Assembly: GCA_964494945.1 (NCBI GenBank)
Contig: CAZBTX010000002.1
Coordinates: 38,696-102,695, forward strand
Origin: an uncultured Candidatus Saccharibacteria bacterium
GTDB taxonomy: Bacteria > Patescibacteriota > Minisyncoccia > Sungbacterales > JACQCQ01
Reading direction: 5' to 3'
DNA length: 64,000 nt
Part shown: positions 3,731-64,000 of the stretch, piece after piece
Layout: each line of letters starts with the position of its first letter
Position numbering within the stretch: position 1 is the first letter of the stretch
Notes under the pieces: model-generated
Told to the model about the DNA's origin: nothing
Seen by the model: the letters and a program-made list of their open reading frames with translations, nothing else
Database searches by the model: none
Made by a program: the position numbers and the translations under genes

Positions 3731-3801
3731 TCTTAGTTGATTTAATATCTTACATATGCAATAAAGAGACAAGTAAAAAATCCGGCCGAAAGGAGAAGCT
3801 G

Positions 3802-8349: not shown

Positions 8350-8570
8350 TACAGGTTTAGGATACCGTAGAGCTTATTCGTTGACAATGTAATCACGAAA
8401 ATCTAGTATTTTGATGCGCGCCGGAGTGGTGGAACCTCGCACCAAATTCCGAAGAAAAACTCTGGAATCACGCCCGCGGAAACGCCTGCGGCTCGCCGTA
8501 TCTTAACTCGGAACATAAAATGATAGAATTGGTGCGGGGCAGGCTGGCAGATTCACCCCGCACTAAATTT

Positions 8571-8654
8571 GCCGCTGTGGCGAAATTGGCATACGCGATG
8601 GACTCAAAATCCATTGGGGGCAACCCCGTGTCGGTTCAACTCCGACCAGCGGCA
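8571..8654 (+). tRNA. tRNA-Leu (anticodon CAA), class II with long variable arm
   Basis: Hand-folded. Acceptor gccgctg/cagcggc, 3-bp D stem, anticodon stem atgga/tccat with loop cTCAAaa, a variable stem-loop, T arm gtcgg-ttcaact-ccgac, discriminator A. CCA is not encoded. Confidence 0.7.
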
Positions 8655-9078
8655 TCAGAATACTCGGCAAATTTCAGTGTGGGGCGCGCAGGACTCAAAA
8701 TCCTGCGAGCGTAAGCTCATGAGGGGCAAAACGTGAATGTCTTCACGTCTTGCGGGAAATTAGCGTAGATTTATCGAAGCGTTAAAATTTCCCTGGGTTT
8801 CGCTGTGGGAAGCGAAACGACTCCCTCCTCCGGCACCAGAAAGGAAAAAGTAAGTCAGAGCTCGCCGCCTCGCAGAGCGAGGCGGCTCGCGCGTACTGCG
8901 TTTTCGGGCTGAATTCGAATTGGCGATTTTGCATTCGGGGAAAAATAATTTTTGGCCATACATTCTGAAATCCTAAACTCATAAATACCCTTGTTTTGTA
9001 GCCCAATTTTGCTTGACAACCACACTACTCTATGCTATGCTCTCGACATCGCGTGTCCAACCCCACAGGAGGATTCAC

Positions 9079-9916: not shown

Positions 9917-9956
9917 GTACTCACAGGACAATTCTATAGAATTGTCCTGTGAGTAC
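9917..9956. repeat. 40-bp perfect palindrome (18-bp arms around TATA)
   Basis: gtactcacaggacaattc-tata-gaattgtcctgtgagtac, followed by a second short palindrome ggagtcggactcc. Confidence 0.8.
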
Positions 9957-13713: not shown

Positions 13714-13745
13714 ACTGTATCAGTAGGACGTCCTACTGATACAGT
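13714..13745. promoter_or_regulatory. 32-bp perfect palindrome with TAGGACGTCCTA core upstream of PAP2 gene
   Basis: actgtatcagtaggac/gtcctactgatacagt. Lies between the yerC-like stop and the PAP2 start. Confidence 0.5.
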
Positions 13746-19151: not shown

Positions 19152-19198
19152 CCCGAAAAATTAACATTCTCGCATTCTTGAGAATATGAGAATGTTGT
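19152..19198 (-). terminator. rho-independent terminator for tatD
   Basis: Stem aacattctc/gagaatgtt with a T-run on the minus strand (aattttt). Confidence 0.5.
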
Positions 19199-35877: not shown

Positions 35878-36310
35878 GGGAGCGCACTGATTCGACAGGT
35901 CATTTACATCAAGAAGAATTCAGATCGAGATGCCGAGCAACTCTCGCCTTGCCCTTCCGAATCTGTCATTTGACGGAGAATGAGGGTAAAAGAAATCTCG
36001 GCAAAACAAATACGTGCAAACGTATTCAAATTCAATGGCGCTTTTGCGCCCGCTATGGCGTAAGCCGTAGTTGCTTTCTCCGAAAAGAACTTCGGAGCAT
36101 CGGCCCGTACTCGCCCCTAGGCGGATTGCCGGTGTCATTTGGGGCTTGATTGCACTAACTCCGGTATGTGTGACGACAATTGCCGGAAACAGTCATGGGA
36201 TATTTTGCCGAATTTCAGAACCCATGAGTGAAATTAAATTCGGATATATCTGTAAATTATTTTTCTTGATGCTGACCTGGACGCGGGCTCATTACCCGCC
36301 GCTTCCACCC
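35878..36310 (+). ncRNA. ssrA: tmRNA (ssrA)
   Basis: 5' GGGAGCGCACUGAUUCGACAGG matches the tmRNA 5' consensus. The 3' end GGACGCGGGCUCAUUACCCGCCGCUUCCACC gives a T arm plus an acceptor that pairs with the 5' end. Putative tag ORF GCA AAC ... UAA at 36017-36064 encodes ANVFKFNGAFAPAMA. Confidence 0.75.
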
Positions 36311-41076: not shown

Positions 41077-41136
41077 CAAAGACTTTAACTACAAATCGAC
41101 AACATCAAAAAACACACCGCATACGTTCTACACACT

Positions 41137-41174
41137 CCTACCCTATACCATGCTATAGCATGGTATAGGGTAGG
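41137..41174. repeat. 38-bp perfect palindrome with ATGCTATAGCAT core
   Basis: cctaccctataccatgctatagcatggtatagggtagg. Confidence 0.8.
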
Positions 41175-41200
41175 AATTGGTCTTATTCACTTTATGTGAA

Positions 41201-48112: not shown

Positions 48113-48173
48113 ACTCTCGGGGCGAATTCTTTCTATGCGTCCCCACAGGGACTCGAACCTTGGGGAATAATGA

Positions 48174-48245
48174 CGCCCTCGACAGGAATCGAACCTGTAC
48201 CGCGCCCTTCGGAGGGGCGCATTGTGTCCATTCAACTACGAGGGC
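48174..48245 (-). tRNA. tRNA-Arg (anticodon CCG)
   Basis: Hand-folded on the minus strand. Acceptor gccctcg/cgagggc, D stem gttg/caat, anticodon stem cgccc/gggcg with loop cTCCGaa, T arm acagg-ttcgatt-cctgt, discriminator G. Confidence 0.7.
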
Positions 48246-48618
48246 AATGTTAGACCGCGCTCGTTCCGCTCCCCTAAGACGGAAGTTCCGCTTACGCGGA
48301 AACTCTCGCGTCTCGCCGGCGAAACCCAGGGAAAATCACGTTTCGATAAATCTACACTTTTCCGATTATAAAAACAAAACCCATACGACACCGAGGTGTT
48401 ATATGGGTGAGGAGCGCGTTGCCGCTCTCCTAGCTTCTGCCAGCCGCTGGATTGAGGCCATTCCCTCCGACGTCTCGGAAAGGACGCCCGGCTGGGTGGA
48501 GAAACGGAACATCCGCACTCCTCACGCTTGGCGCGCGCCTTCTTATGAAGTTGTCAGGTGTGCATTCTCTACGGAGGTTTCTTCGTCTTCATCGGGTCTC
48601 CCGACGAGTACGTCTCGG

Positions 48619-52711: not shown

Positions 52712-53203
52712 ATGCCGGCAGCCAGATTACCGAGGGGTCCCAAAAGGCCTGTAGCAAAACCTACGCCAACGCCACGTCAGGATACCCTACGCATTCACAG
52801 TAGCATCATCGCGCGTCGCTTCGTACTCGCCAATATCCGAGGCGAGCAGGTCTTGGTACCCAGAAAAAGGGCGGAGCGGGAAGGACTTTCTTTTGTTCCT
52901 TTCCCGCAATCGTCACCGCCCAAACCATTGAGACTGCCGAGGTTGCCTAAGCGCCTCAAGGCGCCCGGGCCGCGAAATATTCCCAACCCGCCACCTTCTC
53001 GAATTCCACTAGCGGGTTTTGGGCTGATTGAGGTCCGCGGCAGAACCCGGATAACTAAGCTTCGCGCTAGAATATCCCAAACGGAGCCGGCGCCTTTGCC
53101 CACCTCGCGCGTCGTCTCGCCGCACCTTGCTCTCATCACGAGGGGGGGGACATACCCGCATCGTAAAATGCCGCCAGACGTAAAGAGAGCGGCCGTCAGC
53201 TGA
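52712..53203 (+). CDS. Pro/Arg-rich basic hypothetical protein (GC-rich island)
   Basis: AAAGGAG Shine-Dalgarno. Ends inside a palindromic terminator. Low-complexity sequence. Confidence 0.3.
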   Translation: MPAARLPRGPKRPVAKPTPTPRQDTLRIHSSIIARRFVLANIRGEQVLVPRKRAEREGLSFVPFPQSSPPKPLRLPRLPKRLKAPGPRNIPNPPPSRIPLAGFGLIEVRGRTRITKLRARISQTEPAPLPTSRVVSPHLALITRGGTYPHRKMPPDVKRAAVS

Positions 53204-53220
53204 CGGCCGCTCTTCTCTAA
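53186..53220. terminator. bidirectional palindromic terminator
   Basis: agagcggccgtcag/ctgacggccgctct, a perfect 28-bp palindrome between convergent genes. Confidence 0.5.
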
Positions 53221-56225: not shown

Positions 56226-56267
56226 CCGGCCGCTCTCCTCGGGGAGAGCGGCCGGACTCACTTTTTA
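56226..56267. terminator. bidirectional rho-independent terminator
   Basis: 13-bp stem ccggccgctctcc/ggagagcggccgg with a T-run. Confidence 0.6.
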
Positions 56268-57649
56268 ATATCTTTTTTCTTTTTCAACACCGCTTGGTTT
56301 TCTTGGTCGGCCCTAGGTTGGTAATATTTCCTCCCGCGCAATTTCTCCGGCAAATGTTCCTGCGAAACTTTAGCATCCAAAAAATCATGGGCATATTTAT
56401 ATCCTTTGTGATATCCCAGATCTTTCATGAGCTTAGTTACCGCATTCCTTAAATGTAGCGGGACGGGCAAAGCGCCGTGTTCTTTTGCGTCAGACAACGC
56501 GGCCAAAAGTCCAGTATACGAAGCGTTGGACTTCGGCGCCAAAGCCAGATAGGTCGCGCCGTGCGCTAAGTTGATCATGGCTTCCGGCATCCCCACATGC
56601 TCCACGGCTTCTGCTACAGCAATAGCTACCACTAATGCCGTTGGCAGGGCGTTTGAAATATCTTCCGAGGCAAAAATTATCATGCGGCGCGCAATGAATC
56701 TCGGGTTTTCTCCCGCCTCCACCATGCGCGCGAGCCAATACAAAGCCCCGTCCGGATCCGAATCGCGCATGGATTTGATGAAGGCCGAGATGACGTTATA
56801 ATGCTCCTCGCCTTTTTTGTCGTATCTTATGGCTTTTTTCTGGAGGGCATCCTCCACCATCTTTTTTGTAATCTTTATACTCTTAGCGGCATCTTTGCTC
56901 ACCGTCTTATTCTCTAATTCGCGCGAATTAGAGAATGCGGTATTCGGGGTGGAGAGAACAATAAATTCCAGCGCATTCAGCGCCACTCTAGCATCTCCGT
57001 CGGCAAATCCAATCACAGCGTGCTTGGCGTCCTCGTCCAACTTGGCCTTGCGCGTTCCTAATCCACGCGCCAAGTCGGAAAGTGCTCTATCAATAATATT
57101 TTCAAGCGCATCATCAGTAAGCGGTTCTAAAACCAAAACCATGGAACGGGAAAGTAGAGGCGAGTTAAGTTCAAAAGAAGGATTTTCGGTGGTGGCACCG
57201 ATTAAAATAATCGTGCCGTTTTCCACGTAAGGCAAAAAGGTGTCCTGCTGGGCTTTGTTGAAGCGGTGGATCTCGTCAACGAATAAAATGGTTTTGCGTT
57301 TTTCAAACTTCAGTCGCCTTTTGGCGTCTTCAATCAGTTTGCGCAGCTCCGGGACGCCGGAAGTGGCCGCCGAAAACGGCTGAAAAAATCCTTTGGTCTT
57401 TTCCGCGATGATGCGCGCCAGCGTAGTTTTGCCGGTTCCCGGCGGACCCCACAAAATCACCGACCGCAACTCGTCTTTTTCAATGGCTGTTCGCAAGGGC
57501 TTCCCCTTCCCCACAATCTCATCCTGCCCGTGAAAATCGCCGAAATCCCGCGGCCGCATGCGCTCGGCCAACGGCTCCATGCCTTTTATATTTTCTTCAA
57601 ATAAGTCAGTCACAGTGAAACTATTATACTCCCGCCGTCCCGAAGGCAT
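56258..57649 (-). CDS. rarA: replication-associated recombination protein A (AAA+ ATPase) carrying in-frame palindromic insertion
   Basis: GPPGTGKTT Walker A and MgsA_C region. An FSNSRELEN insert is encoded by the 28-bp palindrome. Confidence 0.75.
   Translation of the reverse strand: MPSGRREYNSFTVTDLFEENIKGMEPLAERMRPRDFGDFHGQDEIVGKGKPLRTAIEKDELRSVILWGPPGTGKTTLARIIAEKTKGFFQPFSAATSGVPELRKLIEDAKRRLKFEKRKTILFVDEIHRFNKAQQDTFLPYVENGTIILIGATTENPSFELNSPLLSRSMVLVLEPLTDDALENIIDRALSDLARGLGTRKAKLDEDAKHAVIGFADGDARVALNALEFIVLSTPNTAFSNSRELENKTVSKDAAKSIKITKKMVEDALQKKAIRYDKKGEEHYNVISAFIKSMRDSDPDGALYWLARMVEAGENPRFIARRMIIFASEDISNALPTALVVAIAVAEAVEHVGMPEAMINLAHGATYLALAPKSNASYTGLLAALSDAKEHGALPVPLHLRNAVTKLMKDLGYHKGYKYAHDFLDAKVSQEHLPEKLRGRKYYQPRADQENQAVLKKKKDIKK
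56909..56936. repeat. 28-bp perfect palindromic element inside rarA
   Basis: attctctaattcgcgcgaattagagaat. Confidence 0.85.
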
Positions 57650-57726
57650 ATCAGGTAGTAGAAATTCGAACAAGCAACCACTTGTTCGCCGTAAGCTAAC
57701 ACTCGGATTTTCACTACCCGGCATAT
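57647..57726. mobile_element. MITE-like element abutting rarA start codon
   Basis: TIRs catatcaggtagtagaaattcgaac and ctcggattttcactacccggcatat around an inner gaacaag/cttgttc hairpin. Confidence 0.55.
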
Positions 57727-58580: not shown

Positions 58581-58626
58581 GCTCCCTACTCTATCTTATG
58601 CTATAGCATAAGATAGAGTAGGGAGC
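58581..58626. repeat. 46-bp perfect palindrome with ATGCTATAGCAT core
   Basis: gctccctactctatcttatgctatagcataagatagagtagggagc, between convergent genes. Confidence 0.8.
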
Positions 58627-59265: not shown

Positions 59266-59303
59266 GCGTACCCCCTCCCACTACGATACTCTAGAGTATC
59301 GTA
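59266..59303. repeat. 38-bp perfect palindrome (TCTAGA core)
   Basis: cctcccactacgatactctagagtatcgtagtgggagg. Confidence 0.8.
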
Positions 59304-59314
59304 GTGGGAGGAAT

Positions 59315-63047: not shown

Positions 63048-63932
63048 CTATACCACCTTGCGGGCGAGTTGGTAGAGCGCGTACCAAATCGGCCGGAAAA
63101 CCACATCAAAAGCAAGAGGATGAGTCTTAGACGTTCCGCCGAATCCTTTTTTGAAACGGGAGATGCCGGGCCACTTAATTTCATCAATACCCCACAAGTC
63201 ATAGGTGGCGCATCCGCGCCTTCTGGCTTCCTGTATAATCCGCCAGTGCAGGAGATACGGCGCCATCACGTTTCGCAATTCGTAATTTGAAGCGCCGTGA
63301 AGGTAAGTAGCCGTTCCTTTGTAAAAATTCACCAGAGCCGCCGCCGCGACTTCTTTTTTGTAAACTGCAAAAAACAATCTATTCTCTAATTCGCGCGAAT
63401 TAGAGAATAATAAATGCTCGTAGTGCGATTTGGGATGCAAATGAAAGCCATCACGCTTGGCGGTTGCGGAAAGCAGCTTGTAAAACTCTTCAACCGCCTC
63501 CGTGCCGCGCTCTTCTACCGCCACCCCGTGCCGCTCGGCGACTCGTATGTTGTATCGCGTTTTTTCGTGCATACCGCGAAGCAGTTCATCATCGGATTTT
63601 GTCAGATCAATCAAAACCGTCTCCCGCGGCTGTAGATTCAGCGCCGGAGATACTTTCAAATTACTTGTCGCTTGTCGCTTGTCGCCTGTCGCCAATTCAT
63701 TTTCTGGCTCAACGCGAATAAAGATTGGACTATCGGGGAGCGCCCTTAATGCTTTGAAAAATCCCTCGACATTTTTAATTTCCGGCCGTGGGCAGTACCA
63801 ATAAAAAAATCCGAATGGCAAATTGTGTTTGAAGAAAACCGCCGATTCACTACCAAAGACGAGACGATGGGTCTCCCGCCCATCCAGTTTCTGAATTTCT
63901 TCCCATTCTTTGTACTGCAAAAATGATGGCAT
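63048..63932 (-). CDS. FemAB-family peptidoglycan bridge-formation protein carrying in-frame palindromic insertion
   Basis: YLHGASNYELRNVMAPYLLHW is FemAB-like. An FSNSRELEN insert is encoded by the 28-bp palindrome. Confidence 0.5.
   Translation of the reverse strand: MPSFLQYKEWEEIQKLDGRETHRLVFGSESAVFFKHNLPFGFFYWYCPRPEIKNVEGFFKALRALPDSPIFIRVEPENELATGDKRQATSNLKVSPALNLQPRETVLIDLTKSDDELLRGMHEKTRYNIRVAERHGVAVEERGTEAVEEFYKLLSATAKRDGFHLHPKSHYEHLLFSNSRELENRLFFAVYKKEVAAAALVNFYKGTATYLHGASNYELRNVMAPYLLHWRIIQEARRRGCATYDLWGIDEIKWPGISRFKKGFGGTSKTHPLAFDVVFRPIWYALYQLARKVV
63381..63408. repeat. 28-bp palindromic element inside FemAB-like gene
   Basis: attctctaattcgcgcgaattagagaat, identical to the rarA copy. 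Confidence 0.85.
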
Positions 63933-63942
63933 CCCTACCTAT

Positions 63943-63970
63943 CTTCTCTAATTCGCGCGAATTAGAGAAG
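63943..63970. repeat. intergenic copy of the palindromic element upstream of FemAB-like start
   Basis: cttctctaattcgcgcgaattagagaag. The 26-bp core is identical. Confidence 0.85.
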
Positions 63971-64000
63971 GTGAGTTATATACTTTACTGGCGGTTTTGG

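Follow-up and report, generated by a model that had tools for sequence, protein, structure and literature searches.

A perfect 28-bp palindrome, ATTCTCTAATTCGCGCGAATTAGAGAAT, recurs in the 64-kb stretch of DNA analysed here (the window), where it is read in frame inside rarA (56909-56936) and inside a femAB gene (63381-63408). What is it for? We consider it probable, from the genomic sequences compared, that the palindrome serves as operator, or cognate site, for a small HlyU-like protein of the ArsR/SmtB family, conserved across Paceibacteria-type Patescibacteria. The gene of this protein, referred to below as the helix-turn-helix (HTH) gene, is itself bracketed by copies of the site. An earlier reading made from the sequence alone (the sequence-only reading) had taken the palindrome for a selfish insertion into rarA, similar to the Rickettsia palindromic elements (RPEs). 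One part of this view stands, that is, a dispersed repeat, read in frame, tolerated by its hosts and a net gain in RarA; a selfish insertion of the RPE type is not what the comparison supports.

The presence of the palindrome in the window is confirmed and far beyond chance, with three matches observed and none in each of 100 dinucleotide-preserving shuffles. The 28-mer equals its own reverse complement and is laid out as ATTC-TCTA-ATTC-GCGC-GAAT-TAGA-GAAT. Only frame 2 is open and gives FSNSRELEN, while the other two frames contain TAA and TAG, as the sequence-only reading had described. The copy at 63381-63408 is the identical 28-mer and encodes the same peptide, which had also been seen correctly. 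A third copy, missed at that time, is intergenic (63943-63970, CTTC...GAAG) and ends 10 nt upstream of the femAB ATG; it differs from the canonical one at the two outermost bases, but the symmetry is retained and the palindrome remains perfect. Just past the window end there is a fourth canonical copy, at 3395-3422 of L206 (L-numbers denote retrieved loci, and L206 is from the same contig, running past the window end). The four canonical copies fall within 7.4 kb of contig JACOYZ010000011.1, in the order ruvA, palindrome, 42 nt, HTH gene (88 aa), palindrome, femAB with a palindrome inside and, further on, rarA with a palindrome inside. In addition, a variant that keeps the four-tetramer layout but has other spacers, ATTC-TCGC-ATTC-TTGA-GAAT-ATGA-GAAT, is found at 19166-19193, 5 nt past the TatD stop codon and upstream of leuS. 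An assembly or adapter artefact is ruled out by the contiguous flanks in conserved genes and by the presence of the motif in about 80 independent assemblies. A sigma-70 promoter scan was also made, and the palindromes do not score as promoters.

Does the repeated unit reach beyond the 28-mer? No convincing longer element was found among the four copies of the genome, and there is no target-site duplication. When their flanks were compared, the highest-scoring pair reached 13, where the null gave 11 at most; with 24 comparisons made, this is marginal. The shared stretch, TTTTTGCAG(T)TACAAA(G/A)AA, is at 3750-3790 and 4312-4345 of L206 (about 63900-63860 and 63340-63300 of the window), that is, in the DNA after the femAB-start copy and in the DNA after the femAB-internal copy. 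It could be the trace of a longer copied patch. Another perfect 28-bp palindrome, ATTCCAATATTCTGCAGAATATTGGAAT, with the four-tetramer layout and other spacers, adjoins rpsT beyond the window (L206 268-295).

To see how widely the palindrome occurs, its 20-base core TCTAATTCGCGCGAATTAGA was scanned over 185,579 species-representative genomes. At least 119 loci carry the exact core; they come from about 80 species genomes, and nearly all of these are Patescibacteria. The taxa are of the Parcubacteria/Paceibacteria type, including Sung-, Kaiser-, Taylor-, Vogel-, Wolfe-, Zambryski-, Campbell-, Lipton-, Yanofsky-, Harrison-, Nomura- and Portnoybacteria, among others. The element does have further copies: the third and fourth ones described above and these loci elsewhere. 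The four bases flanking the core vary yet stay complementary (ATTC/GAAT, ACTT/AAGT, ATAT/ATAT, ATTG/CAAT, CTTC/GAAG), and the symmetry extends into copy-specific flanks, by 5.2 bases per side on average and by up to 13, which gives perfect palindromes of 46 bp. Among the matches listed, 32 of 129 exact cores lie within long open reading frames (ORFs), and all 32 are in the single open frame; the earlier claim that genic copies are tolerated in this frame only is borne out. At least 24 of the 32 are in genes identified by homology, and the hosts are NifS/IscS, Dus, a MurD-like ligase, TatD, Fmt, Mpg, Tgt, MnmA, MurI, MiaA, a GT1 glycosyltransferase, RarA and FemAB. About 75% of the copies in the same list are intergenic, located between 56 co-directional, 23 convergent and 7 divergent gene pairs, and the intergenic copies are biased to gene 3' ends. 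Half-sites rarely stand alone there (the arms number 161 and 173 and the full sites 129, and about 14 are expected by chance), and there are few near-miss copies within the window.

Copies are found at the same position in orthologues of different candidate phyla, namely in five NifS, five Dus, three MurD and three TatD genes. For example, Dus orthologues with 53-62% protein identity have 27-28 of the 28 nt in common. The sequence-only reading regarded the same peptide at the same position in distant orthologues as a sign of ancestral protein sequence. Such orthologues exist for Dus, NifS, MurD and TatD (in Taylor-, Wolfe-, Nomurabacteria and others), which goes against that reading, while the peptide in RarA is limited to one clade, which agrees with it. 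At orthologous genic sites the copies are conserved at the nucleotide level, and we infer that the dispersed copies are spread and kept as DNA sequence. Two side observations belong here. Five loci labelled as Ignavibacteriae or 'uncultured Gammaproteobacteria' (L104, which is JACPWH010000148.1, and L014, L027, L028 and L052) carry both the palindrome and the HTH gene; these contigs are probably mis-binned or mislabelled Patescibacteria. In L012 (1178-7998), and also in L008, L018, L078 and L112, palindrome copies occupy the short gaps between tandem paralogues of about 600 aa, which have a Cys-rich N-terminal region and no Pfam match.

Is there any gene that goes together with the palindrome? 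The ORFs of the at least 119 loci were clustered into neighbour families. By far the largest family near the copies is a protein of 86-95 residues, found in 23-25 of the loci, with the family motif LKALANRRRLAIL...LSFKATSKHL...EKEQRSL. It matches NF033788 with 63 bits (cut-off 55), Pfam HTH_5 with 33.8 bits (cut-off 22) and HTH_20. Its best solved relative is HlyU (4k2e, E 9e-15), and the profile matches in PDB also include NolR, PagR, CzrA, CadC and SmtB. Judged by these matches, the partner protein is a winged-helix regulator of the ArsR/SmtB family. Apart from it the clustering gave only housekeeping genes and no transposase or recombinase, although not every ORF was scanned.

The HTH gene is almost always bracketed, with one site 5-100 nt upstream of its ATG and another at its 3' end. 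The upstream site often stands just before a TGnTATAnT (-10) box, and the 3' site commonly overlaps the stop codon, so that TAA falls inside the left arm (…ATT/CTT CTC TAA). An independent sample came from a metagenome scan seeded with the protein, which gave 80 loci. Counting as a site any match with at most 4 mismatches in 20, and taking the loci with enough flank, 54 of 75 (72%) have a site within 160 nt upstream, at 20-90 nt from the ATG, and 56 of 77 (73%) have one at the 3' end; the calculated chance expectation is about 6e-5 per locus. Among 120 homologues most end with ...LL or ...IL, as expected for a stop inside the palindrome. Sites are about nine times denser near the HTH gene: 8 per 100 kb at distances of up to 1.5 kb from it, against 0.9 elsewhere. 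The window ends inside such a gene and holds the 3' end of it (63962-64000, minus strand, ending ...PKPPVKYITHLL before the stop). This 88-aa gene is complete in L206 (3464-3730), its upstream bracket is the copy at L206 3395-3422, and its 3' bracket is the third copy, in which its stop TAA (63962-63964, minus strand) falls. The ruvA-femAB locus varies among relatives: it has palindrome, HTH gene and palindrome in the window genome and in L124, a solo palindrome in L122 and L123, and nothing in L125. In the protein-seeded loci (L126-L205) the neighbourhoods of the HTH gene are very varied. It is often beside small nucleases (PD-(D/E)XK/Cas4-like, DpnI-like, GIY-YIG) or a DnaQ-like exonuclease, and in six of these loci it is immediately upstream of NifS.

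The anatomy of the site also points to recognition by a protein. The general pattern is ATTC-N4-ATTC-N4-GAAT-N4-GAAT, with tetramers spaced by 8 bp, and the canonical spacers are TCTA/GCGC/TAGA. In 1.16 Mb of loci there are 80 occurrences of this four-tetramer pattern, where chance would give 0.0003, and 38 of them have non-canonical spacers. The sites that bracket the HTH gene follow the consensus tc-TCTA-ATTC-GCGC-GAAT-aggN-GAAT-AG and are oriented alike on the two sides. They keep the tetramers and the spacing while the right spacer is free, and no more than 11 of 54 and 8 of 56 sites have symmetric spacers. With the right spacer free the hairpin potential is lost, and sites lacking dyad symmetry and hairpin potential favour protein-DNA recognition over an RNA hairpin. 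There is also one clear case of co-variation. In L058 a divergent homologue has the helix INFKTGSEHI instead of LSFKATSKHL, and it is bracketed by GTTC-N4-GTTC-N4-GAAC-N4-GAAC; all other sampled homologues have the ATSKHL helix and the ATTC/GAAT site.

How did the palindrome come to lie inside coding sequences? The second canonical copy is in a FemA/FemB-family peptidoglycan bridge glycyltransferase gene (P0121, 63048-63932, minus strand), where it is read as L-FSNSRELEN-R. More than 100 FemAB orthologues have a native segment of equal length at this place, with the consensus LL-xx-RSxx-FSNELFF, while the window has LL-FSNSRELEN-RLFF; the copy is therefore not the insertion that the sequence-only reading supposed. 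Orthologues of femAB without the palindrome already read TCAAATTCGCACGAG at the spot. Two FemAB orthologues that were found by protein similarity alone carry the palindrome with 28/28 and 27/28 nt, and their flanking codons differ; two others have QSNSHEFSNE (17/28) and RSNSHEFSNE (14/28). Likewise, the NifS copies align without gap with E. coli IscS (1p3w), and the Dus copies without gap with T. maritima Dus (1vhn). Of the four genes tested, three (FemAB, NifS and Dus) show no net insertion, and only RarA gains. Going by these alignments, in most host genes the motif overwrote native codons and was not added to them.

The rarA copy is the exception. The rarA/mgsA ORF (56258-57724, minus strand) has the annotated product P0001 (463 aa, start at 57649), a RarA annotated in a Candidatus Sungbacteria metagenome-assembled genome (MAG), to which the ORF product is 100% identical. 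It matches RuvB_N/AAA/AAA_assoc_2/MgsA_C and can be aligned over its whole length with E. coli MgsA (3pvs). The palindrome is read straight through as A-FSNSRELEN-K, and the peptide, residues 239-247 of P0001, is located in the linker that joins the AAA+ lid to the MgsA_C domain, which agrees with the place given to it before. Compared with E. coli MgsA there are 16 extra residues here. The peptide is present only in the seven closest orthologues (at least 82% identity), and the next clade (72-79% identity) has neither the peptide nor about 12 neighbouring residues, so the expectation that other orthologues lack the insert is right for RarA. In the AlphaFold model (mean pLDDT 80.4) the peptide is within the coil 237-254, with pLDDT below 50. 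As far as the alignments and the model tell, the net gain in RarA is real and belongs to the expansion of a disordered, lineage-specific linker. One orthologue reads VSNSRELET, encoded by GTC...GAC, where a paired change of F to V and N to T kept the symmetry at the cost of two amino-acid changes. Three RarA orthologues have an extra 30 bases exactly at the palindrome centre, and similar central inserts are found at other loci. Such GC-rich inserts of 19-40 nt between ATTC and GCGC are at L120 1094-1143, L121 3682-3731 (rarA), L028 4168 and L058 4828, and the same kind is seen in the HTH-gene 3' sites of L006 and L114. They typically end with ...GG(G/A)CAGGC|GCGCGAAT, and those in RarA add 10 in-frame residues (PLRQGYEGQA or RLHQGFGGQA). 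The inserts may be a second small element aimed at the palindrome centre.

Putting these observations together, a scenario can be proposed for the operator. Dimers of the protein would bind the sites and autoregulate their own gene. Further copies would have been written into nearby and distant DNA, mostly into short intergenic regions at gene ends, with about one in five to one in four placed in frame within housekeeping genes, in linkers that tolerate them. In these places they would act as extra binding sites, as roadblocks, attenuators or titration points, and selection for binding would maintain them at the nucleotide level. Entry into coding DNA would take place by short-patch templated conversion from an existing copy at microhomology, rather than by transposon-like insertion, and this would explain why most genic copies are length-neutral. 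The copy 560 bp upstream could have been the donor for femAB, and the target may need prior microhomology. The rarA copy would do no harm to the protein, since it is in a disordered, lineage-specific linker expansion. A more far-reaching version, which we put forward only tentatively and regard as somewhat doubtful, is that regulator and palindrome form a phylum-wide, self-bracketed cassette with a writable operator, copied length-neutrally into DNA near and far, the coding sequence of essential genes included, and long kept there as an intragenic control or roadblock.

Which known system is it most like? In function the closest likeness appears to be an ArsR/SmtB autorepressor with an inverted-repeat operator, such as SmtB, CzrA or the non-metal-sensing HlyU, which have 12-2-12 operators. 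The protein is a small winged-helix protein of the same family, and the site is a dyad-symmetric one of about 28 bp with ATTC/GAAT beside the regulator's own gene. Unlike those autorepressors, the site is near-invariant across a phylum-level clade, two sites surround the gene with the second over its stop codon, and copies are dispersed and placed in frame inside housekeeping genes; in addition, the sequences examined have no visible Cys/His sensor site. CIRCE/HrcA, parS/ParB and NBS/Noc also have an inverted repeat nearly unchanged across wide taxa with one conserved protein as the reader (a role that the HTH protein would have here), and parS and NBS sites are often within coding DNA and clustered near the gene of the binding protein. 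Those sites, however, have 13-16 bp (9-N9-9 in the case of CIRCE), come about by point mutation, are visibly degenerate and have known roles, and the protein here is of a different family and would have another role.

The likeness to RPEs is that palindromic repeats are found in frame within conserved genes and between genes, usually at structurally tolerant places. RPEs have 100-150 bp, form a long hairpin, add 30-50 residues, are confined to Rickettsia-type genomes and decay over time. To our knowledge, no RPE has a partner protein. The present conserved unit has 20-28 bp, and the symmetry beyond it uses unique, copy-specific sequence. It usually leaves the number of residues unchanged, keeps its nucleotide sequence across candidate phyla, is mostly intergenic with the bias to 3' ends, and has a candidate cognate ArsR-like gene, and so the comparison with RPEs made by the sequence-only reading does not hold. 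The matches are in Patescibacteria MAGs, and neither Rfam nor the literature searched gave a match to the sequence. Another likeness is to the repetitive extragenic palindromes (REPs) and bacterial interspersed mosaic elements (BIMEs) with their REP-associated tyrosine transposases (RAYTs), that is, short palindromes (20-40 bp) mostly at gene 3' ends and a dedicated gene flanked by copies. A GTAG/CGTC head sorts most REPs (PMC3733652). In contrast, the palindrome ends with ATTC/GAAT (or ACTT, ATAT, CTTC) and has no GTAG or CGTC head; the flanked gene encodes a winged-helix protein of about 90 aa and not a Y1 (IS200/IS605-like) transposase; the copies are not strictly extragenic, with a fifth to a quarter of them in genes; and they number about 10-20 per genome, not hundreds.

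What else could the palindrome be? It might be a REP-like hairpin element of RNA or single-stranded DNA, i.e. a bidirectional terminator, or a stabiliser or processing site of mRNA 3' ends, with the regulator gene merely one host of it. The fold is indeed stable, with a stem of 12-15 bp and a GCGC loop (-13 to -17.5 kcal/mol, z -4.3 to -6.5), the co-varying flanks lengthen the stem, and the prevalence of convergent over divergent pairs is what such an element would show. In some genomes a copy lies between an A-run and a T-run (aaaaccACTT...AAGTggtttt), in the manner of a bidirectional intrinsic terminator. The femAB-internal copy (63379-63410, minus strand) is followed by TTGTTTTTT, which encodes the conserved LFF, and with the downstream TTTTTT it even scores like an intrinsic terminator on the coding strand in mid-gene. 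Nevertheless, a U-tract is absent from most copies, no Rfam family matches, the symmetry is perfect through the centre where an RNA loop does not need it, and the sites around the HTH gene keep tetramers and spacing but lose the complementarity of the arms. A G·U wobble test for constraint at the RNA level gave no clear signal (G·T at 18-26% of the non-Watson-Crick positions, against about 17% expected). We think a hairpin element rather unlikely on balance. A selfish mobile palindrome of the RPE kind or like a MITE (a miniature transposable element with inverted repeats), which inserts at random, survives where tolerated and has no host function, would account for the near identity of the copies over 28 bp, a sign of copying and not of convergence, for the single open frame, and for the net gain of RarA in one clade and in a disordered loop. 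The pieces of 19-40 nt at the exact centre in several loci could also be seen as marks of an insertion hot spot there. Against it are the lack of net insertion in FemAB, NifS and Dus and of any target-site duplication, the absence of a transposase-like or RAYT-like cluster among the neighbour ORFs, and the tight pairing with the ArsR-like gene, which it leaves unexplained. Moreover, orthologous positions across candidate phyla keep 27-28 of 28 nt while their flanks have diverged, and a neutral insert would have decayed. A selfish origin is accordingly judged unlikely.

Site-specific recombination offers another explanation, in which the palindrome would be a dif- or pdif-like site of 11-6-11 layout that flanks a mobile HTH cassette, and solo copies would be landing sites or footprints. 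The 28 bp can be divided into 11-bp AT-rich arms and a 6-bp CGCGCG centre, both bracket sites have one orientation, the cassette is present or absent at the ruvA-femAB locus among relatives, and the varied neighbourhoods of the HTH gene often include small nucleases. On the other hand, the clustering of neighbour ORFs linked no recombinase gene to the sites or the cassette, and the arms appear to resemble Xer-binding arms only weakly. Many identical active sites inside essential genes would be destabilising, and ordinary recombination between two repeats can account for the loss of the cassette. This makes a recombination site quite improbable. A DNA uptake signal of naturally competent Patescibacteria, built up by biased uptake and recombination, would fit a motif conserved clade-wide, common at gene 3' ends as an inverted repeat, and present in coding DNA at orthologous positions without change of length; the FemAB orthologues with 14-17 of 28 matches could then be intermediates. 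The uptake signal sequences and DNA uptake sequences of other bacteria have a density of about 1 per kb. Here the density is 0.9 per 100 kb away from the HTH gene, with three canonical copies in the 64-kb window, half-sites are rarely alone and near-miss copies few in the window, and the clustering around one regulator gene would be unexplained. An uptake signal is therefore very hard to credit.

Returning to the operator, which we favour, several points speak against it and should be noticed. The link between protein and site consists of genomic association and a single case of co-variation in the sequences compared. To find 10-20 sites in a genome of 1 Mb a regulator needs far less information than 20-28 perfectly conserved bp contain, and the excess of conserved information implies that the copies are related by copying. 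Convergent gene pairs are more frequent than divergent ones among the matches listed (23 and 7), which is the pattern of a 3'-end element and not of classical operators. The dyad symmetry in the spacers, reaching into unique flanks to give palindromes of up to 46 bp, is not explained by protein binding alone, and no obvious common regulon was seen among the host genes. The 3'-end bias, the symmetry in the flanks and the excess of conserved information keep the hairpin, selfish-repeat and dif-like explanations alive.

Some other features of the window may be mentioned. It has six further perfect zero-loop palindromes of 28-46 bp, each of unique sequence, at 58581-58626, 59274-59311, 9917-9956, 41136-41175, 13714-13745 and 53186-53213. 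Several of them have the common centre ATGCTATAGCAT and ends GGGAG, and the two inspected are intergenic beside gene 3' ends. All six are symmetric through the centre, which is unusual for ordinary terminators and suggests that the genome makes or keeps perfect palindromes readily. A search of the whole window against Rfam at the gathering threshold, and of 63300-64000 at E of at most 10, found only a tmRNA, two tRNAs and chance-level matches. The tmRNA gene is at 35878-36310 (RF00023, 89.9 bits), and the tRNA genes are tRNA-Leu(CAA) at 8570-8656 and tRNA-Arg(CCG) at 48172-48246.

In the literature searched, the clade-wide pairing of palindrome and regulator, with copies over essential coding sequences, is undescribed. 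Full-text searches found no description of the sequence or of the pairing in Patescibacteria or Parcubacteria, and all matches to 'palindrom' were mentions of CRISPR. What does the finding mean? One lesson is that in-frame palindromes in genes are by themselves no evidence of selfish insertion. A protein-binding palindrome, if this is what it is, can overlay a coding sequence without change of length and then be conserved at synonymous sites, which is relevant to annotation, to dN/dS analyses and to distinguishing insertions from overwritten sequence. If the writable-operator scenario is true, regulatory sites would be dispersed here in a manner that has not been described for bacteria. The genomes of Patescibacteria are tiny, their regulators are few and genetic tools for them are lacking, and a motif that can be read across about 80 species genomes and has an identifiable partner may give a testable entry to their gene regulation or chromosome organisation.

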